Virus record (IMG/VR): IMGVR_UViG_3300005466_000025
Span: 1 to 64,000 of that record
Length of the DNA stretch: 64,000 nt
Source: a virus
Direction: 5' to 3' (one strand)
Numbering within the stretch: position 1 is the first letter of the stretch; each line of letters starts with the position of its first letter. The notes beneath the pieces are model-generated. The model did not search any database. It saw only the letters and a list, made by a program, of their open reading frames with translations, and had not been told where the DNA came from. A program made the translations under genes and the position numbers. Positions 12,505-26,254 of this stretch are shown here, piece after piece.

Positions 12505-13008
12505 CTATTCTAGTTCTACTAGTCTGGCTCTTAGCTCAGCTAGTCGTATCGGTATAATTGTGTTCTCAGCCTGCTCAAGGGCCTCCCTGAGATATGGTTG
12601 AGGTTTCTGTCCTAACACTGTCTTCTTCTTGAACCACTTACCATCAATTTGAAAGATCATAAATGGGGCTTTTCTTGGGGTGATTGGTACACCCTTGGGT
12701 CCAAATACACCTGTTCCATCGTGAACCCATTTTGCGTATTTAGGAACCTTAGGGACCGATAGTTCTGTTTTAACTACCAGTCCCCCTGGACCTTGGACAC
12801 GTCTCTTTAAATCCTTTCTGTCAACCGGATGTAGTCTAAGCGTTCCCTCATCAACTGGGGCCTTTTCCCTTGCAAGGGTTTCAATTTCATCGGCAATATC
12901 CTCAATCGTTGCCCTGAGTAGACGCTGAGCCTTGTCAGGCATTTGCCCGATAAGGTCAAAGAAATTCTCCTTACTTGAAGCCTCTACTCTAATGAAATCA
13001 TCAGCCAT
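12505..13008 (-). CDS. HK97 gp10-like tail completion protein
   Basis: APVDEGTL, YAKWVHDGT, GQKPQPYL motifs. Confidence 0.85.
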   Translation of the reverse strand: MADDFIRVEASSKENFFDLIGQMPDKAQRLLRATIEDIADEIETLAREKAPVDEGTLRLHPVDRKDLKRRVQGPGGLVVKTELSVPKVPKYAKWVHDGTGVFGPKGVPITPRKAPFMIFQIDGKWFKKKTVLGQKPQPYLREALEQAENTIIPIRLAELRARLVELE

Positions 13009-13730
13009 TACTTATCAGTGAGTACCGCGCACTCTCCTCCTTCTTGGAAGACGATTCTATCGAGGGTTTCATCAGGGAGCCATACTTTTCTTGGGTATGC
13101 GGTACCCCAGGAATTAAGTAGCGGAACGGCACCAAGCTTGTCAGCCGTAGGGTGCTTTAGAAAGGCATGAATATCGTCAACGCTTTGTGCCCATCTATAG
13201 GCCTTGATTCCAGAGGCAAGGGATACAGGAAGGAATGTTCCGGTTGCTGAGTCATACTTCCTTGCGCCTTTTTTCAGCAGGATGCTACAACCTGAATTTA
13301 CGTCTGTTCCCTCCTCCGGTGGTGTTTCCGGATAAGGATCAATAAGCTGCGCCTGTTGGTATAGCCAGCGGGCGTCATAACGGCTTCTATTCATCAATGA
13401 GAGGGCACGAGAGAGGCTGAAACCAACACATGCACCCTCTGACCCCTGATCGTAGAATCTCCACCACAGAAACATATCCAGGGCCGATGCATCCCCAGGC
13501 TGAACACAAATGGCGTGTCCCCCACGCACATAGCCAAGCTTGCCTCTGCCGATCCAATAGCGCAACCCATCCTTCTGTGGAACATCAAAATTTGAATACC
13601 AGTTAATACCCAATACGCCAGGCTGAGCCGTCGAAGGAAGCGTAGCGGCCGTAAGAGGATACTTGTCCTTGTATGATTGATCCTCAGGGAATCTAGCTCC
13701 CAATGGACCCTTATGAATTCTTCTAAACAT
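13008..13730 (-). CDS. papain-like (C1) cysteine peptidase with rearranged segment order
   Basis: GGHAI (H72), DQGSEGAC (Q95/C101), NSWG (N206). Confidence 0.8.
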   Translation of the reverse strand: MFRRIHKGPLGARFPEDQSYKDKYPLTAATLPSTAQPGVLGINWYSNFDVPQKDGLRYWIGRGKLGYVRGGHAICVQPGDASALDMFLWWRFYDQGSEGACVGFSLSRALSLMNRSRYDARWLYQQAQLIDPYPETPPEEGTDVNSGCSILLKKGARKYDSATGTFLPVSLASGIKAYRWAQSVDDIHAFLKHPTADKLGAVPLLNSWGTAYPRKVWLPDETLDRIVFQEGGECAVLTDK

Positions 13731-13744
13731 TTTCCTCCTTAAAG

Positions 13745-13776
13745 TAAATGACCGACCCCGAAGGATCGGCCATTTA
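13745..13776 (-). terminator. UUCG hairpin, terminator/attenuator downstream of the major tail gene
   Basis: TAAATGGCCGATCC-TTCG-GGGTCGGTCATTTA on the minus strand. Confidence 0.55.
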
Positions 13777-13856
13777 AGGACCTTTCCCTAGGGATTGCTT
13801 TTGCTAAATCTTTTTCGGGCGATATCGCGTTGCGTATATCTATTATACAGTTTTTA

Positions 13857-14450
13857 TTAGGTCTGGTTAAAGATAACCTGAGTTCTTGTGTATACGTCGG
13901 CAACCGAAGTATCAGCAAGGGCACGGAATCTAACCGGAATCTGCTGCTGCTCACCAGTCTTGTTGAAGACTAGTGCTGATTCCTGGGCAGACTTGGTTAC
14001 CAAGCGGAATACATGCGCTCTGATCTTACCGTCGGCCTTCTGGTGAAGAACGGCAAGTCTTCGCTTAATGTATGTTGTTGGTTCACCAACACCCATCTGC
14101 TGCTCTGTTGTTCCTGAAATAGGTCCAGCCTGCCATGCAATATTGAGTCTTGATAGTGAAGCCTCTGCAAGGGCAGTTGTTACAGACTGCTCATAGGAAA
14201 CAGGGCGAACGTCGATAATACCGAGAATCTGGTCCACGTCGAACTCTTCCTCAGTGTTGTTAACAGTTACGGTAATACCTGTCTTTGTCGCACCTAGGTC
14301 GTTCCAACCTGTGGCAGCGTCGAAAGTTGATAGGTTAATGATATCCCCAATTGTTGTTGGGAACGCGATTGTAGTACCAGCCCACATTAGACGCGCTGGT
14401 CCACGAATAAAGGTATCGTCCGAAATGTTAGTTCTGAAAAAGTCAGCCAT
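13857..14450 (-). CDS. major tail protein
   Basis: 197 aa; W.DLGATK.G motif; strong SD; position in operon. Confidence 0.85.
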   Translation of the reverse strand: MADFFRTNISDDTFIRGPARLMWAGTTIAFPTTIGDIINLSTFDAATGWNDLGATKTGITVTVNNTEEEFDVDQILGIIDVRPVSYEQSVTTALAEASLSRLNIAWQAGPISGTTEQQMGVGEPTTYIKRRLAVLHQKADGKIRAHVFRLVTKSAQESALVFNKTGEQQQIPVRFRALADTSVADVYTRTQVIFNQT

Positions 14451-17513: not shown

Positions 17514-19382
17514 TTAGGCGCTATCTCTAGCTGATCGGATTGTTTCAATCGCTTCTGCTTCGCTCTTGCCTTCGTCAAACATAAGAAGACCGATCTGTGT
17601 CTTTTCCTCGGTTGAGAAATCGGCGTTCTCCTTTGAAGTGTCCTCCGGTGGCTTCTCGCCAGACAGATTCTCCTCGTTAACTACTTCCTTCTCCAAATCT
17701 GCATTTGGGGAAGCAGCTACTAGTCGCTCAACTACCTCTGAAAGTGTGAAGGATGTTTCCTTTCCATTTTCCGAGAGGTTAATAGCTACTGCGCCGTTGT
17801 CAGCGTTAAGGACTTCCTCGGCAGCCATAAGTACGGCTGGTGACTTGCCCTCTTCCTTCCAAGCGGCGAGCTTCGCGTCAATACGATTCTTTCTAACTTC
17901 CGCCTCTACTGCTTCTAAACGGTCGAGGCGGGACTTAACTTCATCCTCCGAAAGACCAAGGTCTTCGAAAAACGTGTTCTTTACTTCTGGTGTTTCTTCT
18001 AGGGTTGACACGATTACACCTCCTTTGTTTATTGCAGTAGTGTCTGTATTAGACGTGTCATCCACTTCATTCTCCTCTGAGAATGAAATTATTTCTAGGT
18101 CTTCTCCTGCGTTTAGGGCCTTACGAAAATCGTCCATATCGTTCAGCCATGGGCTATTTGTTAACGCAGAGTGACCTAGAATAGCGTTAAACTTTGTGCC
18201 CGTATCCTTCTTGATATAATCAAAAAGGATTCCGGCGCTTACATTGGCAATTGAGCCTTCAAGCACCTTTTCTTTAATCTTTTTGTCTGTAAATTCATGG
18301 GCTGCCTGTAGAATTGCCCGACCCTTGTCGTCGGTTGAAATTCTTACATCCCTAATAAATCCTGTGTTTTCATGAACCTTGTCATCATGTGACAATGGGA
18401 TTGTGACATGATCCTTGACCCCGGCTTCGAAATTGTTCTTCAATTCCTCAAGGGAAATCTTGAATTTGCGGGCATCGGATTGCCCATCCTTTGTGACGGT
18501 GATGGGCCTATTGATTGGCTTCTGCCCTGGTCCTGGCGAATACTGCCAAACGCCCTCTCGCATAATGGTCTTCCAGATTACTCCGTCTTCCTCTGTTACG
18601 TCCCCACCATCATCAAAGAACATCTCCGCAAGGATTTGTGGCTCCTCCGCGTAGTTTTGTTCAACCCATGCCTTGGCGACAGTAGTCCAGTCGGACTCGT
18701 CGGCCAGTACGACACCATTCTTATTAAACTTATATGGAATTACAAAATAGTCATTGTAGCCATAGCAGACTAGGGCCTGTCCAGGCTGAATATCCTCCAC
18801 CCAATATTGATACCCTGCTACGTTATCCTCACCCTCCGCGTTGTGCATTCCATAGGATTCATTGAGGGCCTCCTGCACTTCCCTCCTCATATAATCCATA
18901 CTTTTCATATAGTCCCAAACCACGTCTCCGTCCGCAAATTGCGGATTTTGTGCTATACTTCCCCCTGTGATAAGAGCCACGTCCTCCTCAGTGATCTGGT
19001 CTAGGTACTCAAGGAAGTCCTCTGGAACCTCATTCTCAAACTCCAACTCATCCGTAAGGAAGATGTTAAGGTCTGGGAAGGATTCCGAAAGGTTCTTAGG
19101 GGTATACTTCTTTCCCTTTCCTCTCCATTTAGTATTACCTACGATCAGGTCCTTGAGAACGGCGCAATACTCCTCAGTATGCGCCCCGAAACGCTTACGG
19201 TTGTCCCGTACACAGGCAGTGAAAGGATGCTTCATCTTTGCATAATGTCTCATTAACGGACGCAACTTCTTCTTGTCCGCTTCTGATACATTGGCTGTTC
19301 CCTTGGAAATGGCAAAATAGGCTACCTCAAGGTAACCGTCAATTTCCTCATCTGTGAAATCAAGTGTTATATTTTCGGCCAT
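17514..19382 (-). CDS. Mu gpI-like prohead protease/scaffold fusion
   Basis: IPLSH...GFI...VSAG...H.ALTN.P motifs; acidic coiled-coil C-terminus. Confidence 0.85.
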   Translation of the reverse strand: MAENITLDFTDEEIDGYLEVAYFAISKGTANVSEADKKKLRPLMRHYAKMKHPFTACVRDNRKRFGAHTEEYCAVLKDLIVGNTKWRGKGKKYTPKNLSESFPDLNIFLTDELEFENEVPEDFLEYLDQITEEDVALITGGSIAQNPQFADGDVVWDYMKSMDYMRREVQEALNESYGMHNAEGEDNVAGYQYWVEDIQPGQALVCYGYNDYFVIPYKFNKNGVVLADESDWTTVAKAWVEQNYAEEPQILAEMFFDDGGDVTEEDGVIWKTIMREGVWQYSPGPGQKPINRPITVTKDGQSDARKFKISLEELKNNFEAGVKDHVTIPLSHDDKVHENTGFIRDVRISTDDKGRAILQAAHEFTDKKIKEKVLEGSIANVSAGILFDYIKKDTGTKFNAILGHSALTNSPWLNDMDDFRKALNAGEDLEIISFSEENEVDDTSNTDTTAINKGGVIVSTLEETPEVKNTFFEDLGLSEDEVKSRLDRLEAVEAEVRKNRIDAKLAAWKEEGKSPAVLMAAEEVLNADNGAVAINLSENGKETSFTLSEVVERLVAASPNADLEKEVVNEENLSGEKPPEDTSKENADFSTEEKTQIGLLMFDEGKSEAEAIETIRSARDSA

Positions 19383-24421: not shown

Positions 24422-26254
24422 TTAACCTGGGGCCACCACCCCACCGTTATCCCAAACGTTTCCACTCCACACATTTCCGGAACGTGTTGTTGAGAAGTCC
24501 GTGATTGGCCCGTAGGCTGCACACAAACCATTGGAACCGCGCTGGAACACGTTATTTGTGAACTTCTGGTTTGTCGCGTTAGTTGGGTCCGATGAGTATG
24601 GCTTGCCGCCTGTGTCTCCACCGTAGGCGCAGAATCCGGAACCAATACTTGCAACAAATAGATTTCCGTCAACTGTATTGTTCTTGATCGGAACAAAGTC
24701 AGGATATCCAGTCAGATCGGCGGAACATCCAATTTCACTGTTAACAAATGGTCCAGTATATGAACAATGAAGCGAGTTGTGGCGAATTGTGGCATTCTGT
24801 TCCTCACGCACCGATGATGCGTGGGCCTTGTTGCTTGCGTCAGGCCACAGATTTGTACCATGGAAATAATTATCCTGAATCAAGCAAGGGCCAGGGGCCT
24901 CACAATATGCGGCCCTGTTGGAATTGATTAGCTCCGTTCTGAGAACGGTATAGTTTGTTCCAGTTATTCCACAGTCAGTTGTGGCATTATTTGGATCGCC
25001 GCAGGCGTACTTCCCGGCCGGACACGACCCGTTAGAACACGCCGGGTACTGCACCCCGCTGTCAATGAACGAGTCCTGCACGGTGAATGATGGGGTTCCA
25101 TTGCTTTGAACAATTCCACCGTTGAGATATGAATTCTTCAGAACGAATCCACTTGCCCGAACATCAATTGTTCTACAATTAACAACCATTGAGTCAATCA
25201 CGAAGTTCTGGGTTGTGATTGTGCAGGAACCAGTGTATGTTGGCATTGTTGATGCCGCAGCATTTGGCCCTGTGTTTGATGGTCCAGGGAAACATCCTCC
25301 TGCATTATCCGGACCGTCTGGGGTGTTGGGGGTGCTTGATGCACATGTTCCTCCACCTCCGCCGCCGCCATTTGAGACAGTCACTGTAACAGGGGTTGCC
25401 ACACCAACATTTCCGGCTGTATCAGCAGCACGGGAACCGAATGTGTGGGAACCGTTGGAGATTGTGGCCGTATCAAAGGATACTGAATATGGGGCCACTG
25501 TATCATTGGTGAATGTTGTTCCGTCAAGCTGGAATGTTACATTCTGAATTCCACCTGGATCGGTTGCAGTTGAGGATACCGTAATTGATCCTGATACCGT
25601 TGATCCATTGGTAGGTGAGGTAACTGTGACAACTGGGGGAGTTGTATCCGCAGTTGAACATGAGCTAGTCGCAACAGTCAATGTTGAAGTTGCTGAATTG
25701 TTTCCTGCGGCATCCTTGGCTCTAACACCAGCGGTATATGTTGTTCCACAGGTAAGTCCTGTGTTGTTGAAACTTAGACTTGTTGTTGTTCCAAGGCTTA
25801 CGCCATTTCTAAATACCTCATAGCCTGTTACACCAACATTATCAGTTGAGGCACCCCATGAAAAGTTATAGCTTGTTTGTGTGCTTGTTGACGCCAATCC
25901 TGTTGGTGTCGATGGGGCTGTTGTATCAGTTGGAGGGGCAACGGGTCCTGATCTTCCGCTTGTTCCCTCAACTATTGCGGCAACCTTGTAATCATATGAA
26001 CCCTTGGTAAATTTTATTGTTGTTTTGTTGGGATCATTTGTTCTTGAGACAAGAACCCAATCACTTGTTGCCGATGCCTTCGTGAAATATAGATAACCAT
26101 ACCCCGTCTGAGATGGATAGCTATATGTTACTGAATTTGTATTCTGTGAAACCAAAGTTAGTTGAAACTCATCTGCCGCCATCGCACTAGTTATCACGAA
26201 GGGAATCGCAATAGCTGCGACCATTGCGGCAACAATCGTCTTATAACTCTTCAT
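24422..26254 (-). CDS. secreted-type protein: signal peptide, FN3, Ig-like (Big) domain, right-handed beta-helix
   Basis: MKSYK + hydrophobic stretch + AMA; DTTAPSTP...W.ASTDNVGVTGY...DAAGN; DTTPP.V.VTSP.NG; NN/DN-rich C-terminus. Confidence 0.85.
   Translation of the reverse strand: MKSYKTIVAAMVAAIAIPFVITSAMAADEFQLTLVSQNTNSVTYSYPSQTGYGYLYFTKASATSDWVLVSRTNDPNKTTIKFTKGSYDYKVAAIVEGTSGRSGPVAPPTDTTAPSTPTGLASTSTQTSYNFSWGASTDNVGVTGYEVFRNGVSLGTTTSLSFNNTGLTCGTTYTAGVRAKDAAGNNSATSTLTVATSSCSTADTTPPVVTVTSPTNGSTVSGSITVSSTATDPGGIQNVTFQLDGTTFTNDTVAPYSVSFDTATISNGSHTFGSRAADTAGNVGVATPVTVTVSNGGGGGGGTCASSTPNTPDGPDNAGGCFPGPSNTGPNAAASTMPTYTGSCTITTQNFVIDSMVVNCRTIDVRASGFVLKNSYLNGGIVQSNGTPSFTVQDSFIDSGVQYPACSNGSCPAGKYACGDPNNATTDCGITGTNYTVLRTELINSNRAAYCEAPGPCLIQDNYFHGTNLWPDASNKAHASSVREEQNATIRHNSLHCSYTGPFVNSEIGCSADLTGYPDFVPIKNNTVDGNLFVASIGSGFCAYGGDTGGKPYSSDPTNATNQKFTNNVFQRGSNGLCAAYGPITDFSTTRSGNVWSGNVWDNGGVVAPG

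Follow-up and report, generated by a model that had tools for sequence, protein, structure and literature searches.

Papain-family (C1) peptidases carry their catalytic residues in a textbook fixed order along the chain: Cys, His, and Asn. Clan CE peptidases such as adenain and Ulp1 have a papain-related fold in which His precedes Gln and Cys, with a Glu or Asp placed after His and ahead of Cys, and they have no NSWG motif. To our knowledge, few enzymes of any kind have exchanged internal segments non-cyclically and kept the whole active site. [quoted passage not shown] Moreover, the capsid protein of Bordetella phage BPP-1 is a non-circular permutation of the HK97 fold (PMC3863775). Finally, tailed phages are reported to have acquired xylellain-type C1A genes from bacteria (Kordis and Turk 2023, PMC10380794), in an account that mentions no permutation. 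Here, we describe a gene on the minus strand of a 64,000-nucleotide stretch of viral DNA (the window, positions 1 to 64,000 of IMG/VR virus record IMGVR_UViG_3300005466_000025) that encodes a C1-like protein with its catalytic motifs in the order His72, Gln95/Cys101, and Asn206. We consider it likely that the product is a folded, probably active C1 cysteine peptidase of the xylellain type with a re-threaded chain, and that this is the best explanation of the evidence as a whole. We call the His-Cys-Asn order swapped and the Cys-His-Asn order canonical.

How the swapped chain relates to the canonical one can be read from its relatives. An exhaustive search returned relatives of ~240 amino acids that matched the protein in several non-colinear stretches. 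A sister subfamily (P0175, P0249, and P0234; viral loci L033 and L036 to L045) has the canonical order, is of similar length (about 230 to 250 amino acids), and has in common with the swapped form the leader LGRRxPxDxxHVxKYPL, the YDQGxEGACVGF domain, and the NSWG...GEAxxxTDR tail. In the sister subfamily, the papain order holds: the SVDEVRxA helix comes first, then the block PVVLGINWY...RGGHAIC, and then NSWG. BLAST with residues 36 to 84 of the swapped protein alone found the block in 24/24 canonical-order relatives at 35 to 67% identity, at their residues about 145 to 210, and block residues about 36 to 78 correspond, at 40 to 67% identity, to their residues about 145 to 190. The rest of the protein aligned colinearly with the canonical-order relatives. 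Alignment of the swapped and canonical profiles by hhalign gave an E value of 4.3e-68, and each profile carried the block as an insertion at its own site; identity between the two topologies was 30 to 50%. The sister subfamily differs from the swapped form in having an extra short strand before YDQG and in lacking the linker helix at residues 194 to 199.

By this comparison, two neighboring internal segments have traded places and the chain has not been circularly permuted, because the N-terminal leader and the C-terminal tail are fixed in both forms. The breaks are clean, with the His strand severed at the hairpin turn that precedes the SDxxQA-x-x-x-NSWG strand; the latter strand has not moved (compare ADKLGAVPLLNSWG in the swapped protein). 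The new connections of the swapped form are residues about 77 to 88 and the subfamily-specific helix 194 to 199. A preliminary description, made from the letters of the window alone, had held that an internal block moved while all catalytic residues were retained and that rotation of the chain could not account for it. Its open reading frame (ORF), motifs, residue numbers, and residue order were exact, and the canonical-order relatives that carry the block before NSWG, with leader and tail in place, bear out both of its claims about the rearrangement.

The swapped form is distinct from the other known cases of altered order. The NlpC/P60 permutants belong to another branch of the superfamily and are true circular permutations with Cys near the C terminus, whereas the termini of the swapped C1 form are fixed. 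The swapped protein is not a rotation with new termini of the LRAT/YaeF type, because its leader and tail are colinear with those of the canonical form and His-Cys-Asn is no rotation of Cys-His-Asn. The likeness to clan CE is that His comes before Cys, but no third catalytic residue lies between them; instead, Asn206 follows Cys101 and stands in an NSWG motif, and all matches, by sequence and by structure, are to C1A enzymes. No clan CE chain was among the top matches listed by Foldseek or VIA, lists which leave room for similarity. The BPP-1 capsid protein is alike in being a phage protein that kept its fold while its chain order changed non-circularly; it differs in being a structural protein, not an enzyme, of unrelated fold and without a closely related pair that shows both orders. 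A literature search, which was not exhaustive, returned nothing on non-cyclic permutation in family C1, and only the NlpC/P60 circular permutants and unrelated cases were found. We conclude that the enzyme family and the kind of phage gene are both known and that the chain topology is what is new.

A swapped order could arise artificially. Misassembly, a chimeric contig, or a miscalled ORF would each produce one, the preliminary description was drawn from one window only, and metagenomic assemblies can be chimeric. The source record, however, is a complete virus genome of 102,756 bp with direct terminal repeats, and the ORF runs uninterrupted from an ATG at position 13730 with no internal stop. 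Seven other IMG/VR contigs (78 to 100% identical) repeat the gene and the entire capsid-to-tape-measure synteny. Relatives were gathered by a word-indexed search, which gave 453, and by exhaustive HMMER, which gave 428 clusters at 50% identity. When the family proteins collected, which derive from NCBI, JGI, ENA, and Logan assemblies, were classified with three hidden Markov models (HMMs), one each for His block, Cys block, and Asn tail, 230 proteins had the order His-Cys-Asn and 31 had the order Cys-His-Asn. Isolate genomes of Amycolatopsis and Saccharopolyspora, complete chromosomes among them, show the swapped order too. Because the same order recurs in many independent assemblies, misassembly, which the preliminary description had itself raised as a way in which it might be wrong, is excluded, and an artifact of any of these kinds has next to no probability. 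We conclude that the swapped order is genuine and inherited.

How the protein is connected to family C1 is indirect. Direct search of the swapped protein gave no Pfam match at E values up to 10 and none in NCBIfam or the PDB, and PF00112 found nothing in a six-frame translation of the phage genome. The preliminary description had proposed a search of each segment against Peptidase_C1; no match to PF00112 was obtained, and it is a profile match to a C1A structure that made the connection. PF00112 matched 3 of the 24 canonical-order relatives, with a best E value of 9.3e-5. A profile of the canonical-order members matched xylellain (PDB 3OIS) at an E value of 1e-16, colinearly and with DQG..C, GGHA, and NSWG aligned, and gave weaker matches to cathepsin B and plant endopeptidases. 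A profile of the swapped members matched 3OIS at 4.6e-5 through the Cys half and NSWG only. Finally, the swapped protein matched PHROG 16701 "peptidase" at 2.1e-12 (residues 92 to 192, profile positions 40 to 145 of 234), and the match is colinear only in the Cys-domain part, as would be expected of a profile with the canonical order. The link to C1 was thus reached only through profiles and through the canonical-order relatives.

Structure prediction points to the same family. AlphaFold 2 (AF2), to which the preliminary description had also looked, gave confident models of the swapped form (predicted local distance difference test [pLDDT] 94.6, predicted template modeling [pTM] score 0.92) and of the canonical form (pLDDT 93.3, pTM 0.91), and the two models have the same secondary-structure elements in permuted order. 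In the swapped model, the Cys domain begins with WWxFYDQG and continues through the catalytic-Cys helix (101 to 114), more helices, a strand (175 to 180), and a helix (184 to 191), and ends with helix 194 to 199, the linker specific to the swapped subfamily. The top Foldseek and VIA matches of both models were all C1A enzymes, and the best was 3OIS, the short bacterial C1A enzyme xylellain of Xylella fastidiosa, the N-terminal region of which aligns with the leader. Xylellain differs from the swapped protein in having the canonical order and a longer chain (about 290 amino acids), and it is 14 to 19% identical. Foldseek and VIA align sequentially, and the contrast between the two forms is read from them. 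In VIA, the canonical model matched 3OIS_B with Z 22.1 over 219 aligned residues and the swapped model with Z 13.3 over 174, a shortfall of 45 residues that is roughly the size of the 43-residue block (36 to 78). In Foldseek, the canonical model matched 3OIS with an E value of 3e-11 and template modeling (TM) scores of 0.68 to 0.71, and the swapped model with 6e-5 and 0.52. VIA also matched the swapped model to procathepsins and pro-papain at Z 10 to 11.6. No viral model in BFVD gave a high-TM match of the same topology to the swapped form. On these models, the swapped protein is predicted to have the papain fold of the C1, xylellain type, in which a helical L domain bearing the Cys helix is joined by a beta-sheet R domain.

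Whether the predicted active site is intact was judged from conservation in an alignment of 110 relatives that share the swapped order. G70, G71, and H72 were each present in 110/110, and Q95, C101, and W208 were each present in 109/110. Position 206 was Asn in 94 relatives and Gln in the other 16, and the equivalent position was Asn in 24/24 canonical-order relatives. Thus, the catalytic Gln, Cys, His, and Asn of C1, and the Trp of NSWG, are all present and conserved, and what departs from the family is the order of His72 relative to Gln95 and Cys101. We infer from homology, invariance, and model confidence that His72 would meet Cys101 and Asn206 in three dimensions.

A different His might instead complete a triad of canonical order, and the moved block might be vestigial or duplicated. 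H188 lies 18 residues before Asn206, near the spacing of His159 and Asn175 in papain. Position 188, however, is His in 31/110 relatives and position 193 in 8/110, and the predicted helix 184 to 191 matches the canonical SVDEVRxA helix, in which that position is usually Arg. Moreover, segment HMMs found no second His block in the protein. We regard a triad completed by H188 or H193, the other way in which the preliminary description had allowed that it might be wrong, as extremely improbable.

Alternatively, the fold might be as predicted but the protein catalytically inert, a pseudo-peptidase with, for instance, a binding or structural function. Activity is so far only predicted, PF00112 does not recognize the protein, and Gln replaces Asn206 in the 16 relatives noted above. 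Against this reading, Gln95, Cys101, His72, and Trp208 are near-invariant across hundreds of diverged sequences, and inteins in the family target the active-site motif, as is typical of strongly constrained sites. We consider a pseudo-peptidase very unlikely.

How a chain in the swapped order could form a C1 enzyme may be outlined as follows. A canonical chain runs from the leader through the Gln/Cys helical domain and a strand-loop-His-strand block to the Asn strand and tail, and in the swapped chain the His block of ~43 residues sits between the leader and the Gln/Cys domain. The rearrangement amounts to a circular permutation of an internal subregion with both termini fixed. The catalytic residues would assemble in space as in papain, with two new linkers making the connections; Cys101 would be the nucleophile, His72 the general base, and Gln95 part of the oxyanion hole, and Asn206 would orient His72. 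The leader would occupy the substrate cleft in the way that a cathepsin pro-segment does with its C-terminal part, and would make the protein a small zymogen.

The conserved leader is suggestive of a short built-in pro-segment. Proenzyme chains (procathepsins B, K, and L and pro-papain) align from residue 1 of both models into the late pro-segment, and alignments with mature enzyme chains start at about residues 16 to 31 of the canonical model. The N-terminal region of xylellain governs activation, to judge by the title of a 2013 paper by Leite et al. that PMC10380794 cites. The leader is read as a pro-segment because of these two observations. Certain points weigh against the interpretation of the gene as an active, re-threaded C1 enzyme. 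No Pfam or NCBIfam model recognizes the swapped protein, the geometry of Cys101, His72, and Asn206 and the leader's place in the cleft are drawn from models and homology, and AF2 confidence proves neither fold nor activity.

How the swap arose was approached with trees in which the block was moved in silico to its canonical place, for alignment only. Five distant phage homologs (Wakanda gp80, Barnyard gp94, XacN1 ORF382, GX15bay, and BlueNGold gp110), all of canonical order, served as the outgroup. FastTree placed 113 swapped sequences together, with the canonical-order P0218 inside them on a long branch. A quick IQ-TREE, rooted on the outgroup, instead nested 27/28 canonical members as a clade among swapped lineages; its deep branches were short and poorly supported, and the outgroup branch was long. 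FastTree and the quick IQ-TREE disagree on the rooting and on the placement of P0218. Constraining all swapped forms to a single group improved the log likelihood by 86 units over the quick free tree, with an approximately unbiased test p value (p-AU) of 0.956. The best-supported reading of these sequences is that the swap arose once from an ancestor of canonical order.

The nested tree raises the reverse polarity, in which the swapped order would be ancestral in the leader-bearing family and the canonical subfamily would be a second swap back. That tree, however, is the one that scores 86 units worse and has weak deep branches and a long outgroup branch. Moreover, one change is more parsimonious than two because the outgroups, xylellain, and all other C1 enzymes are canonical. 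We consider the reverse polarity distinctly unlikely. Apart from the nesting itself, a single swap from a canonical ancestor must contend with the facts that its polarity is drawn for the most part from the architecture of the outgroups and from the constrained tree, which scores better, and that no duplication intermediates (His-Cys-His-Asn or similar, with two His or two Cys blocks) occurred among the classified family proteins. Proteins with an apparent double Cys block were considered as intermediates and rejected, as they proved to be only intein-split genes. The route to the swap would probably have been an internal duplication of the region containing the Cys domain and His block, followed by loss of the outer copies, and the swapped form would later have spread through the chromosomes of Actinomycetota and their phages. 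We note that P0218 (284 amino acids) has the canonical order but reads NNWG at the NSWG site and carries 16 inserted residues behind it. Its position among swapped sequences in the free trees may be either a long-branch artifact or a second rearrangement.

Where the swapped gene occurs is not limited to phages. Distant loci were sought with a 27-sequence alignment as the query against one genome per species, and 153 loci with the gene were found in dozens of Amycolatopsis species, Saccharopolyspora, Lentzea, Solirubrobacteraceae, and many actinomycete metagenome-assembled genomes. Saccharopolyspora spinosa (L073) carries a chromosomal copy. The swapped gene is chromosomal and syntenic in at least 37 Amycolatopsis loci (L078:6001-6732 and 36 in L079 to L138). 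A sodium:solute symporter gene lies directly downstream in these 37 loci, and in most of them nucS and a TetR gene lie upstream, and genes for DUF3558 and dhaK/dhaL/dhaM-type dihydroxyacetone kinase lie downstream, a setting ordinary for a chromosome. The peptidase family is cellular as well as viral, because no phage genes were found near the Amycolatopsis chromosomal copies.

Among phages, small stand-alone C1-like genes are already annotated as "peptidase" or "cysteine protease" in PHROG 16701, including those of the actinophages. These homologs, in phages Wakanda (Streptomyces gp80), Barnyard (Mycobacterium gp94), BlueNGold (Gordonia gp110), and XacN1 (Xanthomonas ORF382), have the canonical order and lack a close leader motif, and the actinophage peptidase genes are sited after terminase, in the right arm, or in a lysis cassette, unlike the swapped gene here. 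The annotated actinophage homologs were found by tblastn with P0175 at 23 to 32% identity, and tblastn with the swapped protein against 50,697 phage records gave no match. In distant viral loci with the gene, clustering of neighbors gave no conserved neighbor family, and the gene usually lies within structural modules. It stands between a methyltransferase gene and the portal gene in L013, after terminase and a portal-MuF fusion in L016, two genes before the major head gene in L012, five genes after it in L026, and six genes before the tape measure gene in L014, and it adjoins head decoration or fiber genes in L018 and L029.

What the enzyme would do for a phage may be considered from these settings. 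Tentatively, it may be a late zymogen-like endopeptidase that processes or trims virion or assembly proteins during morphogenesis, a role that we hold to be possible but somewhat short of probable. A virion-specific role is far from established, and several placements count against it: the syntenic chromosomal copies of Amycolatopsis, the L032 swapped gene that follows an endolysin gene, and the distant canonical homolog BlueNGold gp110, which is encoded between lysin A genes and the holin gene. A general role directed at host proteins is a live alternative.

The last two of these placements also suit a role in lysis or in attack on the cell envelope, as a peptidase of the cell wall or of envelope proteins. 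So do two C1-like phage proteins in BFVD (A0A6J5MXS7 and A0A8S5PQA2), which are annotated with peptidoglycan-binding or N-acetylmuramidase parts and matched weakly (TM 0.42 to 0.45); these annotations and weak matches hint that some phage C1-like domains act in lysins. Against a lysis role, the neighbors of the gene here and in most viral loci examined are head, neck, and tail genes, and the chromosomal copies lack an envelope context. Moreover, we know of no C1A enzyme that acts as a peptidoglycan hydrolase. A role in lysis seems unlikely, though it is a live alternative, and we tentatively favor processing of virion or assembly proteins.

The active site of the family is also a target of mobile elements. 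Relatives of ~570 to 614 amino acids (P0149, P0156, P0159, P0165, P0211, and P0244) contain inteins, with Intein_splicing, Hint, and LAGLIDADG matches, and intein-bearing loci include L035:4633-6423, L037:4735-6573, and L038:4735-6573. In both topologies, most inteins immediately precede the catalytic Cys and use it as their +1 residue (...EGA/C...HN/CVGF..., with the slash at the splice junction). The intein of P0134 enters the chain five residues sooner, following DQG, and its +1 residue is Ser, so that one motif holds two insertion sites. A GIY-YIG/HNH-type homing endonuclease gene lies directly downstream of a canonical-order member in L041:746-1537 and L043:1688-2479. With the inteins and the adjoining homing endonuclease gene taken together, the peptidase gene has been repeatedly targeted by mobile selfish elements. 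The placement of inteins at the active site would point to selection on that site.

The gene lies in the minus-strand late structural module of the window (Table 1). The module runs toward it from a lambda-E-type major capsid gene through a decoration gene, three small genes, and the tail tube gene, and downstream of the Neck1 gene follow two small genes and the tape measure gene (1906 amino acids). The preliminary description had placed the peptidase in a tail operon, between major tail and HK97-gp10-like genes, with its own leader and hairpin. This context holds in the tail tube and Neck1 flanks and in the hairpin of the upstream spacer, but the gene is not specific to tail operons, as it stands elsewhere in other phages and in chromosomes.

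Table 1. Positions in the window of the peptidase gene, its segments and codons, and flanking features
Feature	Position	Strand	Remarks
Whole peptidase gene	13008-13730	-	240 amino acids plus stop; order leader, His block, Cys domain, Asn tail
N-terminal leader, residues 1-35	13626-13730	-	Family motif LGRRxPxDxxHVxKYPL; colinear with canonical-order relatives
Relocated His block, residues 36-78	13497-13625	-	Strand 38-45, short helix, loop, GGH strand 68-76
His72 codon CAC	13515-13517	-	GGHAICV motif; on GGH strand
Cys (L-type) domain and following elements, residues 86-199	13134-13475	-	PHROG 16701 match at residues 92-192; AF2 model
Gln95 codon	13446-13448	-	DQG motif; predicted oxyanion-hole Gln
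Cys101 codon TGT	13428-13430	-	DQGSEGAC motif; predicted nucleophile
C-terminal segment, residues 200-240	13011-13133	-	Asn strand AVPLLNSWG and conserved tail GEx...TDR
Asn206 codon AAT	13113-13115	-	NSWG motif
Shine-Dalgarno sequence AAGGAGG	13734-13740	-	3 nt 5' of ATG; read from sequence
RNA hairpin, UUCG loop	13736-13780	-	Core stem about 13748-13773; spacer 3' of tail tube gene
Sigma-70-like promoter match	13842-13870	-	TTAACC-17 nt-TATAAT, 10/12; overlaps tail tube gene end
Tail tube gene	13857-14450		Upstream of peptidase gene; PF25681, E 1.4e-5 (under curated cutoff); PHROG 21417
Neck1/tail-completion gene	12505-13008		Downstream of peptidase gene; PHROG 5, E 3.4e-10

The spacer between the tail tube gene and the peptidase gene is 126 nt and contains the UUCG-loop hairpin and the promoter-like match. 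The hairpin is stable and sits ~6 nt upstream of the Shine-Dalgarno site of the peptidase gene, and folding of the spacer (136 nt) gave a minimum free energy of -34.5 kcal/mol with z -2.3. A consensus terminator scan did not call the hairpin as a terminator. Placed between the abundant tail tube gene and the peptidase gene, it probably acts in attenuation or in stability, and it may dampen read-through from the abundant tail tube message. The promoter-like match is weak, and such sites are no more frequent than in shuffled sequence.

Other genes of the window may bear on its virion proteins. Upstream of the decoration and capsid genes, positions 17514-19382 of the minus strand encode a 622-amino-acid protein without family assignment. 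Its sole match was a subthreshold one to PF10123 (Mu-like prophage protein I, a protease/scaffold; E value 0.02, residues 325 to 512), and it had no PDB match. The protein may be a fusion of prohead protease and scaffold, which would bear on the need for a C1 peptidase in head maturation. We also note a 610-amino-acid protein with fn3 and bacterial Ig (Big_7) domains, encoded at 24422-26254 on the minus strand and outside the tail operon.

We lean slightly toward regarding the gene as the first recognized natural non-cyclic permutation within the papain (C1) catalytic domain, apparently the product of a single event, with an enzyme that remained functional and radiated. That the gene recurs in phage structural modules and bears inteins at its active site suggests its importance to the phages in which it is found. 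The swap hides the family from Pfam and NCBIfam, such that at least 428 clusters (50% identity) in Actinomycetota and their phages are labeled only "hypothetical protein," and a permutation-aware model would annotate them. If true, the permutation asks how a catalytic beta-strand can be supplied from another point in the chain and how such enzymes fold, and it bears on the genetic route of non-cyclic permutations, which might run through internal duplication and loss and perhaps be aided by inteins or homing endonucleases. Ultimately, both topologies are extant, closely related, and confidently modeled, and they would provide a natural matched pair for structures, for folding studies, and for engineered back-permutation.

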